DNA of 64,000 nt, taken from Escherichia phage vB_EcoM-PM133. Both the position numbers and the translations under genes were made by a program. Position 1 is the stretch's first letter. Every line of letters begins with the position of its first letter. The notes under the pieces are model-generated. The model saw only the letters and a list, made by a program, of their open reading frames with translations. It was not told where the DNA came from and searched no databases. The DNA lies in the sequence record MZ234052.1. The stretch is one strand, 5' to 3'. This document shows, piece after piece, positions 2,305 through 62,835 of the stretch.

Positions 2305-4359
2305 ATGGAACTTATTACAGAATTATTTGACGAAGATACTACTCTTCCGATTACAAACTTAAATCCAAAGAAGAAAATACCGCAAATTTTTTCAGTTCAT
2401 GTTGATGATGCAATTGAACAACCAGGCTTTCGTTTATGTACCTATACATCTGGAGGTGATACTAATCGCGATTTAAAGATGGGCGATAAAATGATGCATA
2501 TTGTTCCTTTTACATTAACTGCTAAAGGTTCAATTGCTAAATTAAAAGGTCTTGGTCCAAGCCCAATTAATTATATCAATTCAGTTTTTACTGTTGCGAT
2601 GCAAACAATGCGTCAGTATAAAATTGATGCCTGTATGCTTCGTATTCTTAAGTCTAAAACCGCTGGTCAAGCTCGACAAATTCAAGTTATTGCTGATAGA
2701 CTTATCCGTAGTCGTTCAGGTGGCAGATACGTCCTTCTTAAGGAACTCTGGGATTACGATAAAAAGTATGCATATATTCTTATACATCGCAAAAATGTAT
2801 CACTAGAAGACATTCCGGGAGTTCCGGAAATTAGTACTGAGCTCTTTACTAAAGTTGAATCGAAGGTCGGTGATGTTTATATCAATAAAGATACTGGAGC
2901 TCAAGTAACTAAAAATGAGGCAATTGCAGCATCTATTGCGCAAGAAAATGATAAACGTTCTGACCAAGCTGTAATCGTTAAAGTTAAAATTTCCCGTAGA
3001 GCAATTGCGCAAAGTCAATCATTGGAATCTTCTAGATTTGAAACGCCGATGTTTCAAAAATTTGAGGCTTCAGCAGCAGAATTAAATAAACCTGCTGACG
3101 CTCCTTTAATTTCTGACGCTAATGAATTAACTGTTATTTCTACTTCAGGATTTGCATTAGAGAATGCTCTTAGTAGTGTTACAGCTGGAATGGCATTCAG
3201 AGAAGCTTCTATAATTCCTGAAGATAAAGAATCTGATGTTAATGCAGAAATAAAAAATAAAGCTTTAGAAAGATTACGAAAAGAATCTATTACTTCAATA
3301 AAAACTTTAGAAACTATTGCTTCTATAGTTGATGATACTTTAGAAAAATATAAAGGTGCTTGGTTAGAAAGAAACATTAACAAGCATTCGCATTTAAATC
3401 AAGATGCTGCGAATGAGTTAGTACAAAATTCTTGGAATGCAATAAAAACAAAGATTATTCGAAGAGAATTGCGTGGATATGCTCTTACCGCTGGATGGTC
3501 ACTACATCCTATAGTCGAAAATAAAGATTCATCTAAATACACACCGGCACAAAAACGCGGAATTCGTGAATACGTAAGTTCAGGATATGTAGACATAAAT
3601 AACGCTCTTTTGGGATTATATAATCCAGATGAGCGTACAAGTATTTTGACAGCATCTGATATAGAAAAAGCTATTGATAATTTAGATTCTGCCTTTAAAA
3701 ATGGTGAACGATTACCAAAAGGTATTACTTTGTATCGTTCACAACGAATGTTACCTTCAATATATGAAGCACTGGTAAAAAATCGAGTTTTTTATTTTAG
3801 AAATTTTGTGTCAACATCATTATATCCAAATATTTTTGGTACCTGGATGACTGATTCATCTGTGGGTGTTTTACCAGACGAAAAGCGTTTAAGTGTTTCT
3901 ATTGATAAAACTGATGAAGGACTAGTAAATTCTAGCGATAATTTAGTTGGAATTGGATGGGTTATTACTGGGGCTGATAAAGTCAATGTTGTTTTACCAG
4001 GTGGAAGTTTAGCACCTTCAAATGAAATGGAAGTCATTTTGCCACGTGGATTAATGGTCAAAGTTAATAAAATAACCGATGCATCTTACAATGATGGAAC
4101 AGTTAAAACTAACAACAAGCTTATTCAAGCTGAAGTTATGACCACAGAAGAACTCACCGAATCGGTAATTTATGACGGTGACCGTCTAATGGAAACCGGC
4201 GAAGTAGTTACAATGACAGGTGATATTGAAATAGAAGACAGAGTTGATTTTGCATCATTTGTTTCATCAAATGTTAAACAGAAAGTAGAATCATCTCTTG
4301 GAATTATTGCGTCTTGTATAGATATTGCAAACATGCCTTACAAGTTCGTTCAAGGATAA
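2305..4359 (+). CDS. alt: Alt-type ADP-ribosyltransferase (capsid-packaged, injected)
   Basis: about 684 aa; N-terminus MELITELFDE (protease-cleavable leader); R/STS/E ART motifs (LYRSQ, FVSTS, EVILPRG); SD GAGAGG before second ATG. Confidence 0.85.
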   Translation: MELITELFDEDTTLPITNLNPKKKIPQIFSVHVDDAIEQPGFRLCTYTSGGDTNRDLKMGDKMMHIVPFTLTAKGSIAKLKGLGPSPINYINSVFTVAMQTMRQYKIDACMLRILKSKTAGQARQIQVIADRLIRSRSGGRYVLLKELWDYDKKYAYILIHRKNVSLEDIPGVPEISTELFTKVESKVGDVYINKDTGAQVTKNEAIAASIAQENDKRSDQAVIVKVKISRRAIAQSQSLESSRFETPMFQKFEASAAELNKPADAPLISDANELTVISTSGFALENALSSVTAGMAFREASIIPEDKESDVNAEIKNKALERLRKESITSIKTLETIASIVDDTLEKYKGAWLERNINKHSHLNQDAANELVQNSWNAIKTKIIRRELRGYALTAGWSLHPIVENKDSSKYTPAQKRGIREYVSSGYVDINNALLGLYNPDERTSILTASDIEKAIDNLDSAFKNGERLPKGITLYRSQRMLPSIYEALVKNRVFYFRNFVSTSLYPNIFGTWMTDSSVGVLPDEKRLSVSIDKTDEGLVNSSDNLVGIGWVITGADKVNVVLPGGSLAPSNEMEVILPRGLMVKVNKITDASYNDGTVKTNNKLIQAEVMTTEELTESVIYDGDRLMETGEVVTMTGDIEIEDRVDFASFVSSNVKQKVESSLGIIASCIDIANMPYKFVQG

Positions 4360-56866: not shown

Positions 56867-57340
56867 ATGAAATCATATACTCAATTTTTAAATGAAGCGG
56901 TGTTAAATGAAGCATCTAGCACTGAAATTCAAGCTGTTGCAAAAGCTGCCATTGCCGCGGGTAAATATTCCTATAAAGATGCTTCCGATGAATCACGATT
57001 CCAATTTGCTCGTGATATGAAAGCCGAAGGATTTACAGGGAATGCAGTTAGTATGGCTTGGAAAAGTTTAGTTGCTACTGGAGCTGCTTTTGCAAAGGCT
57101 TCAGGTAAACCTGCTCCTAAAGCAGATCCTAAAGTCACACAAGAGAAAAATATTGTTAAAGGAATTATCTCCAAATATGAAGCTATCCTTAAAGAGCTTT
57201 TAGTAATCAAAACTGAAGGCCAAAAGCTAGCTCGTGCTTATAGTTTCAAAGATAACCCACATGTTCACTCTCTTGAGTATGTTGAAGACATCCAAAAAAT
57301 TATTAAAGACCGCATTTGGTCTGCTAAACAAATCAAATAA
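56867..57340 (+). CDS. internal-protein-like gene with capsid-targeting-like leader (MKSYTQFLNE)
   Basis: 157 aa, SD AGGAAA; flanked by duplicated terminator. Confidence 0.6.
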   Translation: MKSYTQFLNEAVLNEASSTEIQAVAKAAIAAGKYSYKDASDESRFQFARDMKAEGFTGNAVSMAWKSLVATGAAFAKASGKPAPKADPKVTQEKNIVKGIISKYEAILKELLVIKTEGQKLARAYSFKDNPHVHSLEYVEDIQKIIKDRIWSAKQIK

Positions 57341-57343
57341 CAT

Positions 57344-57374
57344 TCTTAGCCCCGACCAAAAGGTTGGGGCTTTT
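57344..57374 (+). terminator. rho-independent terminator, second copy of the 56790 element
   Basis: identical stem, one loop substitution, T-run. Confidence 0.65.
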
Positions 57375-57509
57375 TGGTATCTAGGCCTTTCCGGGCCTCT
57401 CTAGACATCATTTAGTTTCTACCCTTTATAATATATTATCCTATCTTTTAATTGCCCCTCCCTGCCCTAGAATTCCCTAAAACTTTTTAAAAAATTTTTT
57501 CACAAAACT

Positions 57510-57539
57510 GTTTACACCCCTGTTCTTCCATGGTACTAT
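57510..57539 (+). promoter_or_regulatory. early-type promoter (GTTTAC, 18 bp, TACTAT)
   Basis: same upstream module ttcacaaa...gtttac as other copies. Confidence 0.45.
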
Positions 57540-57581
57540 ACAACTATCAACTACTGATACAAAAACAACTTGGAGAATGAA

Positions 57582-57845
57582 ATGGATAATTACGGCGAAC
57601 TGTTCAACTTCTTTATGAAATGTGTTTCAGAAGATTTCGGTCGTACAGTGAATGATATTAAAGTTATCGGTCCTGACCATCCGATGTTTGAAACCTATGC
57701 AGTAATGGGTAATGAAGATGGTCAGTGGTATACTGTAAAGGTTGTGATTAACATGTTCACTGCTGAAGGTTATGTTAAACTGTCTTCTAAAGTTTACCAT
57801 GATAACGATGAAATCGCAGAAGAATATTTCAATAATATGAAATAA
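57582..57845 (+). CDS. hypothetical protein
   Basis: 87 aa from ATG with SD GGAGAA. Confidence 0.5.
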   Translation: MDNYGELFNFFMKCVSEDFGRTVNDIKVIGPDHPMFETYAVMGNEDGQWYTVKVVINMFTAEGYVKLSSKVYHDNDEIAEEYFNNMK

Positions 57846-57914
57846 TTGTGTACAAACGCCAAGGACGGTGTTATTATAGACTTATCAAAACAAATACAGA
57901 AAACGGAGAAATAA

Positions 57915-58091
57915 ATGACTACTTTAATTATTTGGTTCGACGAAAATGAAGAAACATACTGCGTGAACATTGGCGAAAGCCCAATGCCAGAATTTGAATC
58001 TTCGGATAAAAACTCGGTTGTATCTTGGGCTGAAGGTTATAAAGCAGCAAAAGGCGATGTTGAAATAGTTTACAAACTATCCGGAGTATAA
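57915..58091 (+). CDS. hypothetical small protein
   Basis: 58 codons, SD GGAGAA; below ORF-track cutoff. Confidence 0.4.
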   Translation: MTTLIIWFDENEETYCVNIGESPMPEFESSDKNSVVSWAEGYKAAKGDVEIVYKLSGV

Positions 58092-58134
58092 TACTCTCAT
58101 GGATTTTAAATCTCAATTAACCTAAGGAAATACT

Positions 58135-58728
58135 ATGAACACACTGAAGAAAATTGTTGAGTTTATTCACACTAAACTTGGTTCTGCTATGGCTAAAAAT
58201 CTATCTGTCGAAGAACAGTATACTGCTGCAGCAGCAAAACTACTTGATAAAATTAAAGATCTAAAAACTGCTTCTGTTAAATCTATTAACGAAGAAAAAC
58301 GTATTCGTGAACTTGTTATCGAAAAGAATCGACAGGCCGAATCAAAAGAGCGTGAAATTCGTAAACTTCTTTCCGAAGGCCAAGATGTAACAATGCATGC
58401 TAAACTCGGTTTACTATATCGTCGAACAGCTGAGCAGTTGACTACTAAGGCTGACGGTTATGCTGAAATGCGAATTGAAATCGCCAAGAAAGTAGTTGAG
58501 TTAGATGATGCTCGTCAAGAACTTGCGGTTAAATTGGAATATATCCGTGAAACTCGTGCAGCGAATGCCCTTGGAATTAGTACTGCCGATGATGTAGTTG
58601 AAATTGCAGCACTGACTAAGGTTGATATTGAAGATACCCTTGCTCGAGTTGAAACCTTTAACGGTAATATTTCTGGGGTTGAAACTACCTCTGCCGATGT
58701 TCAGGAATACATTAATTCTCTGAAATAA
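58135..58728 (+). CDS. hypothetical coiled-coil protein
   Basis: 197 aa, K/E-rich heptad-like sequence, SD AAGGAAA. Confidence 0.5.
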
Positions 58729-58732
58729 TGAT

Positions 58733-58757
58733 AAGGGGCTTCGGCCCCTTATACTTG
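58733..58757 (+). terminator. hairpin (AAGGGGC ttcg GCCCCTT) after the 58135 gene
   Basis: GC stem-loop, weak T-run. Confidence 0.4.
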
Positions 58758-58769
58758 GAGTAAATAGGA

Positions 58770-59384
58770 ATGAAAATGAAAATGCAAAGTGATTTCAATT
58801 CAATGTTTGAAGAGTTCCAAAAACAGGTTGATGTTCCAGACCAATTACTAAATGCTCTTAAACGCATGGCAGAAGGACGTAATTACTATTGGGGGTCTTC
58901 ATATGAAACTGATGAAAGCCTTTCCGGAAGATTTTCTAGAGGTAAAAAGTCTTTAATACGTCCTGGAATACTCATTAACAGTATTGAATCAATTCATTCA
59001 TTGACGTGTGATTTTGATGTTGAATTTACTGATTTCATTTCTCCTGAATGGACGGTTTGTTATTTAAACGACGATTTTGATTATCTCGGTGTTTATAGTT
59101 TAAGTGACGCATGGTTTAAACGTAATTTACAAAAGTCAAATTTATTTTATATTGATACTACTGTAAAATTTCAGGGCAAGAAATATTTCTTTACTCTTAT
59201 AGTTGATTCTGAAACGAAGCATGAAAATAAACGTATTCTTAGTAAAAAGAATATCTTAACTATTGTTGATGATCTTTTTGATAAATTTGTAGAAAATCCC
59301 AATTTTGAAAGTGATTTATTACTAGAAAAATTTGTTAAGGAATGTAGAGAATATGTCAAAACCATCACTATACCTTCCAAGTAA
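58770..59384 (+). CDS. hypothetical protein
   Basis: 204 aa; C-terminal FVKECR motif shared with downstream genes. Confidence 0.5.
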   Translation: MKMKMQSDFNSMFEEFQKQVDVPDQLLNALKRMAEGRNYYWGSSYETDESLSGRFSRGKKSLIRPGILINSIESIHSLTCDFDVEFTDFISPEWTVCYLNDDFDYLGVYSLSDAWFKRNLQKSNLFYIDTTVKFQGKKYFFTLIVDSETKHENKRILSKKNILTIVDDLFDKFVENPNFESDLLLEKFVKECREYVKTITIPSK

Positions 59385-59745
59385 ACCTGTGAAGTATGAA
59401 CCAAAGCGTCAGATAATTTCTACTGATGTGTTAATAGGTCCTGTTATACTCATATCATTTGTAATTCTATTGATTATTGGAGGTGTTTTAGATGTTATGA
59501 CTGATATTGATTCTGGCGAAATACTTGTGTTAATGCTAATTCTTCCATTAATAGTTCCACTTTTATTAGTACCCGTAAATTGGGTAGGATACTGGTATCA
59601 AGGAAGACATTATCGTAAACGTGTACGTGATTGGAAAGCTCAGTGTAAAAAGATTAAAAAGGAACACCGGCTTAAGCTAGATATGTATGAATTTGATGAA
59701 ATTATGAAATTTGTTAAGGAATCACGATGCAAAAGCCAAAACTAA
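59353..59745 (+). CDS. small 2-TM membrane protein, family member 1
   Basis: about 130 aa from first ATG; two hydrophobic helices; C-terminal FVKESRCK. Confidence 0.5.
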   Translation: MSKPSLYLPSKPVKYEPKRQIISTDVLIGPVILISFVILLIIGGVLDVMTDIDSGEILVLMLILPLIVPLLLVPVNWVGYWYQGRHYRKRVRDWKAQCKKIKKEHRLKLDMYEFDEIMKFVKESRCKSQN

Positions 59746-60089
59746 ATAAAGTCAAATATTCGTTTCCTGAGGCACTATTAATTCTTGCTGTATCAGTATT
59801 TGCAGCTCTTGCGGGTAGTCTTATTGGATTGTTAATTGACTGTTTTATTTTAAATATCGACGGCACAGTAATTATAACAGAGGTTTGGAGTGAACTTCGT
59901 TTTACTATAGCGATTTCATTATTTTCATTCTTTGGTACCATGTTATATTTTCATTATGATAATTTTAAAATAAATTGGCAAAGAAAAAAGGATTACAAAA
60001 TACAATTAAAGGAATATAATAGCTATATGTCTTATATTGAAAAAGAATCAATGGAAGAGTTTGTGAGTGATTGTAGGAAAATTAAATGA
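59727..60089 (+). CDS. small 2-TM membrane protein, family member 2
   Basis: 120 aa; C-terminal EFVSDCRKIK. Confidence 0.5.
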   Translation: MQKPKLNKVKYSFPEALLILAVSVFAALAGSLIGLLIDCFILNIDGTVIITEVWSELRFTIAISLFSFFGTMLYFHYDNFKINWQRKKDYKIQLKEYNSYMSYIEKESMEEFVSDCRKIK

Positions 60090-60574
60090 TTTTAAAAACT
60101 CGCTGGTATGATTTAGATGATGGGGACGATGGCATTTCAGTTGATAGAGTTGACTGGAATGGTTGTTCTGAAGATATGAAAAATTTGTTGATTAGGGAGT
60201 TTAGAATGGGATATCAAGCAGCTAAGCCATTTACTGTAACAGATGATAAGTTCGTATGTATTCAAAACGGTCGCGCTAAGTTAACGAATGCTGATTGGTT
60301 CACAGATAAGAAGGTTCTTCTGTGGTATATCATTAGTCTTCCTATATCATCGTTCGTATTTTACTTTTTTATAAAAAATCCAATGGACAGAATAGGAGAT
60401 TGGGTTCTTTTAACTATACTTGTTAATATTTTTACAGCAGCAGTATTATCAGGAATATGGCGTATGTTCATTGAAATGCCATGGCGTTTACGCAGACAAC
60501 AAAAGATTTTTGATGAAAAGAAATATACTCAAAATTTAAATAACTTTATCACTGAATGCAGGAAATTAAAATGA
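60086..60574 (+). CDS. 2-TM membrane protein with N-terminal soluble domain, family member 3
   Basis: 162 aa; C-terminal NFITECRKLK. Confidence 0.5.
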   Translation: MILKTRWYDLDDGDDGISVDRVDWNGCSEDMKNLLIREFRMGYQAAKPFTVTDDKFVCIQNGRAKLTNADWFTDKKVLLWYIISLPISSFVFYFFIKNPMDRIGDWVLLTILVNIFTAAVLSGIWRMFIEMPWRLRRQQKIFDEKKYTQNLNNFITECRKLK

Positions 60575-61003
60575 AAACATTATCAGCTGGTATTATCTTT
60601 ATGACAGAAGATAAAGATTTATTTATGGGACGAGTTACCGGTTCTCGTAAACCTGGAATGATTGCACATCGCTGGGATATTCCAAAGGGGCGTGTAGAAA
60701 GTTCTGATTTGAATGCACTGGAAGCTGCAAAAAGAGAATGCTCAGAAGAGACTGGTTTTATCGATTATAATCCAGACCTTCTAGAAGACTTAGGTGTATT
60801 TAAATATTCTAGTAATAAAGACTTACAGTTATTTTATTATACGATTCCAGTAGAGCATGAGATGTTTAGAAATTGCCATTGCGAGTCTTATTTTGAAAAT
60901 AAAGATGGCGTTATGATTCCAGAGATGGATGCTTTTGCTCTTATTCCTCGTACTCAGTGGCAATATGTGATGGGTCCTTCACTTTACCGAATAATGAACA
61001 GCC

Positions 61004-61011
<8 letters not shown>
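60556..61011 (+). CDS. nudE: Nudix hydrolase (NudE-like)
   Basis: 151 aa; Nudix box G-x5-E-x7-REC-x-EETG. Confidence 0.8.
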
Positions 61012-61542
<531 letters not shown>

Positions 61543-61546
61543 AGTT

Positions 61547-61583
61547 GTTTACTTTCTCCTAGAATTGTGATAGTATATTCACA
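61547..61583 (+). promoter_or_regulatory. early-type promoter (GTTTAC, 18 bp, TAGTAT) with dyad TGTGA / TCACA across the -10
   Basis: upstream of denV. Confidence 0.45.
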
Positions 61584-61601
61584 GTTACTTGGAGGGATAA
61601 A

Positions 61602-62018
61602 ATGACTCGTATTAATTTGACTTTAGTATCTGAACTTGCTGATCAACATTTAATCGCAGAATACCGTGAATTGCCGCGTGTTTTTGGTATAGTTCGTAAG
61701 CATGTGGCAAACGGTAAGCGCGTTAAAGATTTTAAAATATCTTCTAAATTTATTTTAGGTTCTGGTCATGTTACTTTCTTTTACGATAAGTTAGAATTTT
61801 TGCGAAAGCGTCAATTAGACATTATAACGGAATGCTTAAAACGAGGGTTCAGTATAAAAGATACTGAAGTTCCTGACATCAGCGATATTCCAGTAGAATG
61901 GAAAAATGATTATAATCCATGCAAATCAGCTATTAAATTGAGTCAACAACGACTTGATGAAAAAATTTTAATGAAACCACATTGGTATAAGTATTACGGT
62001 AAAAATATTTACATTTAA
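61602..62018 (+). CDS. denV: endonuclease V (pyrimidine-dimer DNA glycosylase)
   Basis: 138 aa; [18 protein letters not shown]-terminus. Confidence 0.95.
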
Positions 62019-62027
62019 AGGAAACAT

Positions 62028-62345
62028 ATGAAAACATATCAAGAATTTATTGCAGAATCTGCCGCAGGACAACGTGTAGAAGGCGGTTATATTTGGATTG
62101 AACAAGTTGAGCCGCCGAGTCGCACTTCTACAGGTAAATGGAAAATCACTGTTGATGGTCCTGGTGGTAAACGTAGGACTCTTAAAGAAATTAACGGGTA
62201 CTATGAAGAAGCTCTTTCAGACGCGGGTACTTATATGATGCAAATTATGATTAAAAACCCAGAAAATCGTTTTGCAGCTAGAGTTTTTCGTCGTATTGGA
62301 AATAAGCTTTACGACGCATATTCTAAAAATTTTCCTAAAGAATAA
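62028..62345 (+). CDS. internal protein (ipII position) with leader MKTYQEFIAE
   Basis: 105 aa, SD AAGGAAA. Confidence 0.65.
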   Translation: MKTYQEFIAESAAGQRVEGGYIWIEQVEPPSRTSTGKWKITVDGPGGKRRTLKEINGYYEEALSDAGTYMMQIMIKNPENRFAARVFRRIGNKLYDAYSKNFPKE

Positions 62346-62361
62346 AAATTAAAGGAATCAT

Positions 62362-62835
62362 ATGAAAACATATCAAGAATTTATCACTGAAGCAGCTATT
62401 AATTCTCAAATTATTGCTGAATCTTTTACTGATCTTTTGAAATTTAAAAAAGGTCAAAAAATCACTGCTGTATTGGATGATGGTACAGAAGTTGAGATGG
62501 ATGTACAGGGATATAATTATGCAGTAGATGGAAAACTGTATAATAAATCTCATGCTAAATTTGATTCATTTGACGACTTTGTTAATACAGTTGAAGATGA
62601 AAAAACTCGTCGATCCATTGCAACCGGTGATGCTAAGGTTCTTATGGCACATGGTCATGAACGCATTCGCGCTAAACAGAATAAAATGGGCGAAGATAAT
62701 TTCGCATTAGTTGGTTATCAATCTGGTAAACAAACTTATGGTTATCAACGTACTGCTACCATGTATAATAAAAATGGTAAAATTGCCTTTGTAAATAGTA
62801 AAGGTTCTATTCAGTACGTTAAATCGTTCAAATAA
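62362..62835 (+). CDS. internal protein (ipIII position) with leader MKTYQEFITE
   Basis: 157 aa; 5' module repeated from upstream gene. Confidence 0.65.
   Translation: MKTYQEFITEAAINSQIIAESFTDLLKFKKGQKITAVLDDGTEVEMDVQGYNYAVDGKLYNKSHAKFDSFDDFVNTVEDEKTRRSIATGDAKVLMAHGHERIRAKQNKMGEDNFALVGYQSGKQTYGYQRTATMYNKNGKIAFVNSKGSIQYVKSFK

Follow-up and report, generated by a model that had tools for sequence, protein, structure and literature searches.

A C-terminal motif common to the e.5, e.3 and e.2 products of a T4-like phage and its probable use as ribosome-binding site at the gene junctions

We analysed 64,000 nt of DNA from Escherichia phage vB_EcoM-PM133 (sequence record MZ234052.1; hereafter the window), and within it a run of overlapping genes in which the e.5, e.3 and e.2 products carry a common C-terminal motif, Φ-x-x-F-[IV]-x-[EDG]-C-[RK] (Φ, hydrophobic), which is degenerate in the e.4 product. 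Judged by DNA identity, the source phage is a Tequatrovirus and the region is the e.5-e.4-e.3-e.2-nudE operon of T4-like phages. The genes e.2 to e.5 are long-catalogued, uncharacterised T4 open reading frames (ORFs), hence the genes themselves were already known; in T4, the best-studied phage, roughly one gene in two is still without a function, e.2 to e.6 included. What is new, and modestly interesting, is that the motif is conserved at the peptide level in e.5, e.3 and e.2 across T-even genera, that its codons are used a second time as ribosome-binding sites, and that e.4 and e.3 are paralogues by profile comparison. The motif apparently has not been described before. Our favoured and still tentative reading is that the e.4, e.3 and e.2 proteins may be membrane anchors with both termini in the cytoplasm (N-in/C-in), which would display a common cytoplasmic docking helix to a putative partner; no current concept is changed by the findings.

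The shared C-terminal motif

Counted from the phenylalanine, the consensus is a hydrophobic residue at −3, [END] at −2, any residue at −1, F at 0, [IV] at +1, any residue at +2, [EDG] at +3, C at +4, [RK] at +5 and [KEN] at +6. Translated in six frames, the 64 kb contain three copies of the strict form F[IV].[EDG]C[RK], compared with 0.35 ± 0.59 in shuffles, and all three lie in the e.5/e.3/e.2 cluster, 3–11 residues from a stop; a sister genome has none in its remaining 96 kb, so none is present elsewhere in 160 kb. The window copies are LLEKFVKECREY in e.5, the 204-aa ORF in which the original prediction had already placed FVKECR, MEEFVSDCRKIK in e.3 and LNNFITECRKLK in e.2. In RB69 the copies are ILEQFIMECREY (e.5) and IENFIKECRK (e.3), in VR26 and Dhakavirus LNRFI[TA]ECREY (e.5-like) and LETFIKECKS (e.3-like), in PEi20 VLDFVEQCRT (e.5) and FDSFIKGCRNGRN (e.2-like), and in VR25 LNSFIEECRK (e.2-like); each of these e.3 and e.2 copies runs to the stop codon. 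Mosig-, Gapriver-, Dhaka- and Kanagawavirus thus retain the motif in proteins of 19–39% identity. At 19–36% identity the e.2 family retains 11 invariant columns, among them F154, I155, C158 and R159 of the motif, and e.5, at 19% identity, has 21 invariant columns, 8 of them within L..F[IV].ECREY.K. Moreover, each genome examined, from five genera, has e.5 and at least one motif-bearing membrane protein adjoining e.6.

Searching a library of 1.84 billion proteins with a hidden Markov model (HMM) of e.2 gave eight further e.2 representatives, all of which end in FIxxCR[KN]. Two candidates were rejected, a 2100-aa repeat protein (P0197) as a spurious match and P0204 as a chimeric sequence. A further two-segment protein, of 101 aa, is encoded on IMG/VR contig L043 and has the C-terminus LENFIKECRGK. 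The exact junction pattern TTYATHNNNGARTGYMGNAAATGA was present in 23 IMG/VR stretches, 11 of which are T-even e.2/e.3 genes, and the remainder are short or non-coding and at chance level.

In the e.4 lineage (T4, RB69, VR26) the motif has decayed to FVKE-S/I/V-R, with S, I or V at the position of the cysteine. The terminal RCKS of e.4 is the e.3 start, ATG-CAA-AAG-CC, read one frame over; hence the alignment of this C-terminus with the 'CRK' of the other proteins, as originally proposed, is coincidental, and the cysteine of 'SRCK' is not homologous but merely results from the overlap with the e.3 start codon. In a helix, positions −3, 0, +1 and +4 of the motif, all non-polar (i, i+3, i+4, i+7), would lie on a single face, and in the e.5, e.3 and e.2 tails the helical hydrophobic moment is highest at the motif.

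Membrane topology and a possible docking helix

Kyte-Doolittle hydropathy in a 19-residue window peaked at 2.85 and 3.04 in e.4, at 1.96 and 2.14 in e.2, and at 2.55 and a marginal 1.52 in e.3 (the latter 1.87 with a 15-residue window), and e.5 has no hydrophobic segment (maximum 0.87). A basic stretch follows the second hydrophobic segment in each of e.4, e.3 and e.2. The predicted architecture of three overlapping genes, with two hydrophobic segments, a basic stretch and the C-termini quoted for them, is therefore present, and the two helices hold for e.4 and e.2, while the second one of e.3 is weak. The net charge of the N-terminal tail is +4 in e.4 and +3 in e.3, that of the loop is −4, −2 and 0 in e.4, e.3 and e.2, and that of the C-terminal tail is +9, +2 and +5, respectively. 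By the positive-inside rule, both termini of the three proteins, including the 76-residue N-domain of e.2, are predicted to be cytoplasmic.

Conservation within Tequatrovirus is concentrated in these tails. Invariant columns make up 62–70% of the C-tails versus 0–46% of the membrane segments and loops; the membrane segments and short periplasmic loops are variable and contain insertions and deletions (indels), and the cytoplasmic C-tails are nearly invariant. The ratio of non-synonymous to synonymous polymorphism (pN/pS) among Tequatrovirus sequences was 0.00 in the e.3 tail and 0.09 in the e.2 tail, and reached 0.42 and 0.57 in the respective hairpins at comparable pS (0.13–0.24 in the two tails). 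Tail lengths are near constant in each family, at ∼31–33 aa in e.2, ∼44 aa in e.3 and 45–53 aa in e.4.

The presence of the same helix on soluble e.5 and on several membrane anchors suggests a shared docking element. We propose that the hairpins of e.4, e.3 and e.2 would serve as inner-membrane anchors and that the working part would be the cytoplasmic tail, with a docking helix that e.5 carries too. Through this helix the four products may bind one shared putative partner or each other, and binding would place e.5 or the partner at the inner membrane early in infection, for a job that would be accessory and host- or condition-dependent. A more specific version, in which e.5, e.4, e.3 and e.2 assemble through the amphipathic helix, with the cysteine on the packing face, into one early inner-membrane complex, seems to us rather improbable; if it were true, the complex would tether soluble e.5, and perhaps the strongly conserved coiled-coil e.6, to the membrane, and would be an undescribed T-even machine built on a shared short linear motif. 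In either case a 10-residue peptide common to four co-located early proteins, one of them soluble, offers a handle as bait or as mutation target.

Several points weigh against the docking proposal. The partner and the interactions are putative and of low confidence, and for the N-in/C-in topology the positive-inside rule is the single basis. The cysteine is lost in the e.4 lineage (V is also found in PEi20 ORF142), hence it is not universally required. Helicity of the tails is taken from hydrophobic-moment arithmetic and from an AlphaFold2 (AF2) model of e.2 in which a single unbroken helix spans the second segment and the tail; this model is poor, with a predicted local distance difference test score (pLDDT) of 51. 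The pN/pS values come from just 2–3 sequence pairs and from regions that partly overlap other frames. Finally, in T4 all five proteins are detected in differing temporal classes, with e.4 and e.5 early, e.2 and e.6 middle and e.3 late (PMC9697503 supplements), which does not fit a simple stoichiometric coupling.

The RNA of T4 e.2 to e.6 belongs to the early class (PMC9697503 supplements), and together with the detected proteins this agrees with the early expression expected from the original prediction. Knock-down of each of T4 e.2 to e.6 by dCas13d (CRISPRi-ART) was scored 'Not Fit', that is, fitness was unaffected (PMC11879866 supplement). Natural loss and fusion variants agree with an accessory role: UFV05 and UFV10 carry an in-frame e.4N::e.2C fusion with e.3 deleted, and Dhakavirus 005 is without e.4. 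In vB_EcoM-UFV10 (L011 1414-1734; P0098) the fused protein of 106 aa starts with the first 31 residues of e.4 and continues as e.2 from a point midway through the first e.2 membrane segment, with the microhomology TCCTGT at the junction, and e.3 and the e.2 N-domain are gone; because UFV10 is a complete isolate, e.3 and the e.2 N-domain are dispensable. The T4 reference (NC_000866) differs from the window, where e.2 is intact at 162 aa, in that its e.2 is cut to 102 aa by a −1 deletion in an A6 run (window 60373) and a +1 insertion 78 nt later (window 60451), with a stop in frame between them and the last 70 nt, including FITECRKLK, identical to the window. The truncation, which would also agree with an accessory role, may reflect a genuine pseudogene or else a sequencing error of long standing; the cluster of 102-aa e.2 proteins (P0192) has 22 members.

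The same observations bear on a second proposal, that e.4, e.3 and e.2 are superinfection-exclusion or immunity-type factors like T4 Imm and Sp, or membrane factors of defence or counter-defence, a role which would be compatible with a docking helix. The proteins are small, early, predicted to lie in the inner membrane and dispensable in the laboratory, their copy number varies and they are often lost or fused, and their periplasmic loops and membrane segments evolve fastest. However, the most conserved parts are predicted to face the cytoplasm rather than an incoming phage, and the library scan gave no PADLOC match. Profile alignment (hhalign) with Imm, Imm.1, Sp and Ac returned scores of 7–17 and E-values of 0.02–0.95, at the level of shuffled controls, and two-segment T4 Imm, used as negative control, scored 13–17 against the e.x profiles. 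Moreover, the HIDEN-SEQ preprint, which screened T4 and Bas37, the latter 99.4% identical, on clinical hosts, lists none of e.2 to e.4 as a hit in its main text. An exclusion or defence role is therefore compatible with the data but is without support from homology, and we consider it unlikely.

Gene junctions and relationship of the genes

Two junctions, TGTAGGAAAATTAAATGA and TGCAGGAAATTAAAATGA, have the same nucleotide at 15 of 18 positions, and the 16-mer AAATTTGTTAAGGAAT, which encodes K-F-V-K-E of e.5 and of e.4, is an exact direct repeat (59328-59343 and 59707-59722), so the similarity of the junctions first noticed in the sequence is real. The repeated junction would most likely have arisen by serial duplication, at least for e.4/e.3. 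A deletion between the AAATTTGTTAAGGAAT repeats would yield the gene order of Dhakavirus, in which an e.5-like gene is directly followed by an e.3-like gene.

At 11 of the 18 junctions examined the likely Shine–Dalgarno sequence (SD) of the next gene lies within the motif codons, and the next ATG follows 5–10 nt further on. It is formed by AAG-GAA (K-E) in e.5, e.4 and the e.3 of RB69 and VR26, and by AGG-AAA (R-K) in Tequatrovirus e.3 and in e.2. Position +2 is lysine (AAG) where the SD sits there and otherwise mostly T, A, S, M or I; in VR25 it is glutamate (GAG), which also forms an SD. Because the starts overlap and lie so close behind a motif-borne SD, the e.5-e.4-e.3-e.2 genes are probably translationally coupled.

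Such an arrangement raises the question of whether the common C-terminus is only a by-product of nucleotide constraints (SD, A/U-rich enhancer and overlapping start), copied along with the junction and without function in the protein. The frequent location of the SD within the motif codons, the lysine at +2 that tracks it, the exact 16-nt repeat at two junctions and the dictation of the e.4 RCKS by the e.3 start are all expected from this. On the other hand, F, I/V, C and R are kept despite codon change, with arginine encoded by AGA, AGG, CGT, CGA or CGC and cysteine by TGT or TGC, and the e.3 and e.2 tails show synonymous and almost no non-synonymous change. Moreover, the e.5 genes of VR26, Dhakavirus and PEi20 retain F-[IV]-x-x-C-R in codons that contain no SD (e.g. 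TTT ATT ACT GAA TGT CGT), and the real SD (AAAGAGG, GCAGAGG) is located 20–40 nt downstream. Because the arginine and cysteine codons vary and the motif persists where the SD is elsewhere, we conclude that selection acts on the peptide, and that the SD exploits its purine-rich codons. An origin in RNA constraints only is contradicted by the codon data, and we regard it as improbable. The proposed doubling of the motif as the SD of the next gene thus stands at most junctions and fails in e.5 of VR26, Dhakavirus and PEi20, and the peptide is primary. The junctions are a clean example of dual coding, in which the codons of a protein-selected motif were recruited as the next ribosome-binding site and one motif position (Lys versus Thr/Ala/Ser) tracks this use.

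As to the relationship of the membrane proteins, pairwise BLASTP among e.4, e.3 and e.2 gave weak E-values of 0.005–0.09, and comparison of profiles built from Tequatrovirus only gave similarly weak ones of 0.003–0.06; both were inconclusive because the homologues are 70–99% identical. Diverged members, from RB69, VR26, Dhakavirus, VR25 and PEi20, were therefore collected by tblastn against phage genomes. Mosigvirus RB69 has e.3 at 39% and e.4 at 52%, Gaprivervirus VR26 and Dhakavirus 005 have e.3- and e.4-like genes, and e.2-like genes at 25–33% are present in Gapriver-, Dhaka- and Kanagawavirus. With these added, e.4 and e.3 aligned over their full length at a probability of 89.7% (hhalign, E = 1.8e-6), and e.3 and e.2 over the second segment and tail at E = 4.9e-6 (1.8e-7 with a richer e.2 profile); e.4 versus e.2 was not significant (E = 0.07–0.24). 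When alignment columns were shuffled within each topological segment (100 shuffles), none of the 100 reached the observed score in either comparison, which was 40.7 versus 18.0 ± 3.8 for e.4/e.3 and 38.2 versus 15.6 ± 2.1 for e.3/e.2.

Deletion of the motif separates the two cases. The e.4/e.3 score remained at 33.4 (E = 2.7e-5, z = 4.6, 0/100 shuffles), and that of e.3/e.2 dropped to 18.4 (z = 1.4, 9/100 shuffles). Because their similarity survives removal of the motif, e.4 and e.3 are, as far as profiles can tell, detectable paralogues, and they also have an N-terminal M-[SQ]-K-P-x-L...K-[VP]-K-Y in common. By the same comparisons e.2 appears to be linked to them just by its architecture and its last ∼12 residues. 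The tandem family of three membrane proteins that was originally suggested thus holds for e.4 and e.3, and e.2 falls to noise once the motif is taken away. HMMER and PHROGs hold the three as separate families, with HMMER cross-scores of 1–8 bits, and merged e.3+e.4(+e.2) HMMs performed worse than those of single families.

The position of the genes 0.5–1.7 kb upstream of the endolysin gene e might suggest a further role as holin-, antiholin- or pinholin-like regulators of lysis. Two segments, an N-in/C-in charge pattern and a charged C-tail as in class II holins are indeed found by hydropathy and charge. However, class II holins would be expressed late, whereas in T4 the transcripts are of the early class and the e.4 and e.2 proteins early and middle, no holin family matches in Pfam or PHROGs and there is no similarity to holin T, knock-down is without fitness effect, and in Gapriver- and Dhakavirus e.4/e.3 are several kb away from e; the early expression contradicts a holin-like role, which is very improbable. 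Least probable of all, and a poor fit, is a C-terminal peptide that acts in cis as a nascent chain of the MifM, SecM or TnaC type and pauses the terminating ribosome, so that translation of the next cistron would depend on membrane insertion of the hairpin: a membrane segment, a conserved C-terminal peptide, an immediately overlapping start and tail lengths constant within each family would suit it, but the motif also occurs in soluble e.5, where 11–19 codons separate it from the stop and as much as 49 nt from the next ATG, rather than a fixed short distance; the next SD is situated within the putative pause site or upstream of it, so that a pause would cover the SD instead of freeing it; and e.4 has lost the cysteine.

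Gene context and comparison with known systems

The coordinates of the features are collected in Table 1. Window positions 58000–61600 match 652 phage records; a group of deposited Tequatrovirus genomes, vB_EcoM-CHD2BS1 for example, has 100% DNA identity in this interval and the BASEL phage Bas37/KarlGJung 99.4%, and the order e.6-e.5-e.4-e.3-e.2-nudE-e-denV is that of the annotated T4 record. The overlaps are 32 nt for e.5/e.4, 19 nt for e.4/e.3, 4 nt (ATGA) for e.3/e.2 and 4 nt for e.2 and the nudE ATG at 60571.

Table 1. Features of the e.6 to denV region (window coordinates)
Feature	Coordinates	Strand	Remarks
e.6 orthologue	58135..58728	+	197 aa, soluble; phrog_1203, E 4.8e-87; conserved upstream neighbour, context only
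C(UUCG)G-loop hairpin in e.6/e.5 gap	58731..58752	+	Sequence and terminator-like scan; 5′ edge of the overlapping gene run
e.5 orthologue	58770..59384	+	204 aa; phrog_2607, E 1.8e-109; motif L-E-K-F-V-K-E-C-R-E-Y in C-terminal region
Motif copy 1, FVKECR in e.5	59331..59348	+	AAGGAA 59337-59342, likely SD of e.4 (ATG 59353)
e.4 orthologue	59353..59745	+	130 aa; hydrophobic ~25-46 and 57-77; acidic loop; basic tail 78-130
Degenerate motif FVKESRCK in e.4	59710..59733	+	AAGGAA 59716-59721, SD of e.3; ATG 59727 within R-C-K codons
e.3 orthologue	59727..60089	+	120 aa; strong hydrophobic 16-43; weak second segment 57-76; tail 77-120
Motif copy 2, FVSDCR in e.3	60060..60077	+	AGGAAA 60075-60080, SD of e.2; ATGA overlap 60086-60089
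e.2 orthologue, intact	60086..60574	+	162 aa; predicted cytoplasmic N-domain 1-76; hydrophobic 77-96 and 106-129; tail 130-162
Motif copy 3, FITECR in e.2	60545..60562	+	AGGAAA 60560-60565, SD of nudE ATG 60571; ATGA overlap with e.2 stop
nudE (Nudix hydrolase), last of overlapping run	60556 or 60571..61011	+	PF00293, E 4.3e-13; T4 annotation
e (lysozyme)	61048-61542		Alignment with T4 record
denV	61602-62018		Alignment with T4 record

The products of e.6, e.5, e.4, e.3 and e.2 have full-length PHROG matches (E 1e-58 to 1e-109) whose function field reads 'unknown' or 'membrane protein'. The e.4 product matches phrog_2604 over residues 1–130 of 130 (E = 4.8e-70), with PF26873 precomputed on all 98 homologues, and its gene sits between e.5 and e.3; e.3, between e.4 and e.2, matches phrog_2330 over 1–118 (E = 2.9e-58) and has 45 homologues, T4 and PP01 e.3 included; and e.2 matches phrog_2203 over 1–160 (E = 3.3e-78), with PF26896 precomputed on its homologues. 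Directly upstream of nudE, e.2 occupies the same position in VR25, PEi20, L040 and L041, and its diverged relatives are 153–195 aa long. Local Pfam, NCBIfam and PADLOC library scans of the e.x products gave nothing meaningful, an Rfam scan of 57000–62100 and PDB sequence searches with e.6, e.5 and e.2 (single sequences and profiles) gave no match, and promoter candidates were not above background. Literature searches by gene name returned unrelated papers only, and those for PF26873 or PF26896 found no paper. Some records name e.3/e.4 homologues 'sulfurtransferase' or 'DNA primase' and e.6 homologues 'host specificity protein', names which are supported by no Pfam or NCBIfam model.

The e.6 protein is 74–88% identical across Tequatro-, Mosig-, Dhaka- and Gaprivervirus and is recognisable in Kanagawavirus (PEi20). 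Its AF2 model is a long antiparallel coiled-coil hairpin with generic fold matches; relationship to PspA/IM30 was rejected, as there was no match to PF04012 or E. coli PspA. The hairpin between e.6 and e.5 is stable and has no T-run on the + strand; intercistronic hairpins of the C(UUCG)G type have long been known from T4. The e.2-like gene of Gapriver-, Dhaka- and Kanagawavirus follows the gene of a 228-aa protein (…PGWYPAIPGYHHDDVPRPDIP…; L005 1743-2429, L004 1719-2408, L040/L041/L043 ∼3315-4001) which is highly conserved there and absent from the Tequatrovirus window.

A few gene starts deserve comment. The T4-style nudE start at 60556 is without a ribosome-binding site, and the alternative in-frame start, ATG 60571, is preceded by AGGAAA at a distance of 5 nt and forms the ATGA overlap with the e.2 stop; the N-termini of NudE homologues are nearer the long form in length, hence the nudE start is ambiguous. 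The annotated starts of RB69 e.4 (L003 2148) and the VR26 e.4-like gene (L007 2571) look too short; with in-frame ATGs further upstream the proteins would begin with the conserved MSKPTLYMPSKP and MRTLYLPSKP, respectively, which match MSKPSLYLPSKP of T4. Downstream of denV, two ORFs (62028-62345 and 62362-62835) both start with MKTYQEFI(A/T)E, the capsid-targeting sequence of T4 internal proteins; ipII and ipIII, which in T4 sit between e and denV, are not found in that interval here.

Among known systems, the closest are T4 e.5, e.4, e.3 and e.2 themselves (NP_049741 to NP_049738), orthologues with the same order, overlaps and PHROG families, which are labelled in the record 'conserved hypothetical, predicted membrane protein'. 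T4 Imm and Sp are, like e.2 to e.4, small, early and non-essential envelope proteins, and Imm has two hydrophobic segments, but they have neither the C-terminal motif nor profile similarity, and the conserved parts of e.2 to e.4 are predicted to be cytoplasmic. Class II holins and pinholins (e.g. phage 21 S68) resemble e.2 to e.4 in their two segments, predicted cytoplasmic ends, charged C-tail and nearby endolysin gene, whereas e.2 to e.4 differ in their early expression and in longer, sequence-conserved tails (33–53 aa), and the T4 holin is T. MifM, SecM and TnaC likewise have a conserved C-terminal peptide at the start of the next cistron, and MifM has a membrane segment; here, however, the SD lies inside the motif and not in a downstream hairpin, and the motif is also found in soluble e.5 away from the stop. 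Generic short amphipathic docking helices follow a hydrophobic-x-x-hydrophobic-hydrophobic pattern. Like them, the e-tails would line up their non-polar residues (i, i+3, i+4 and i+7) along a single face of a helix that closes an otherwise variable tail, with helicity here predicted, and such helices too are common to unrelated carriers, as the motif is to soluble e.5 and the membrane hairpins.

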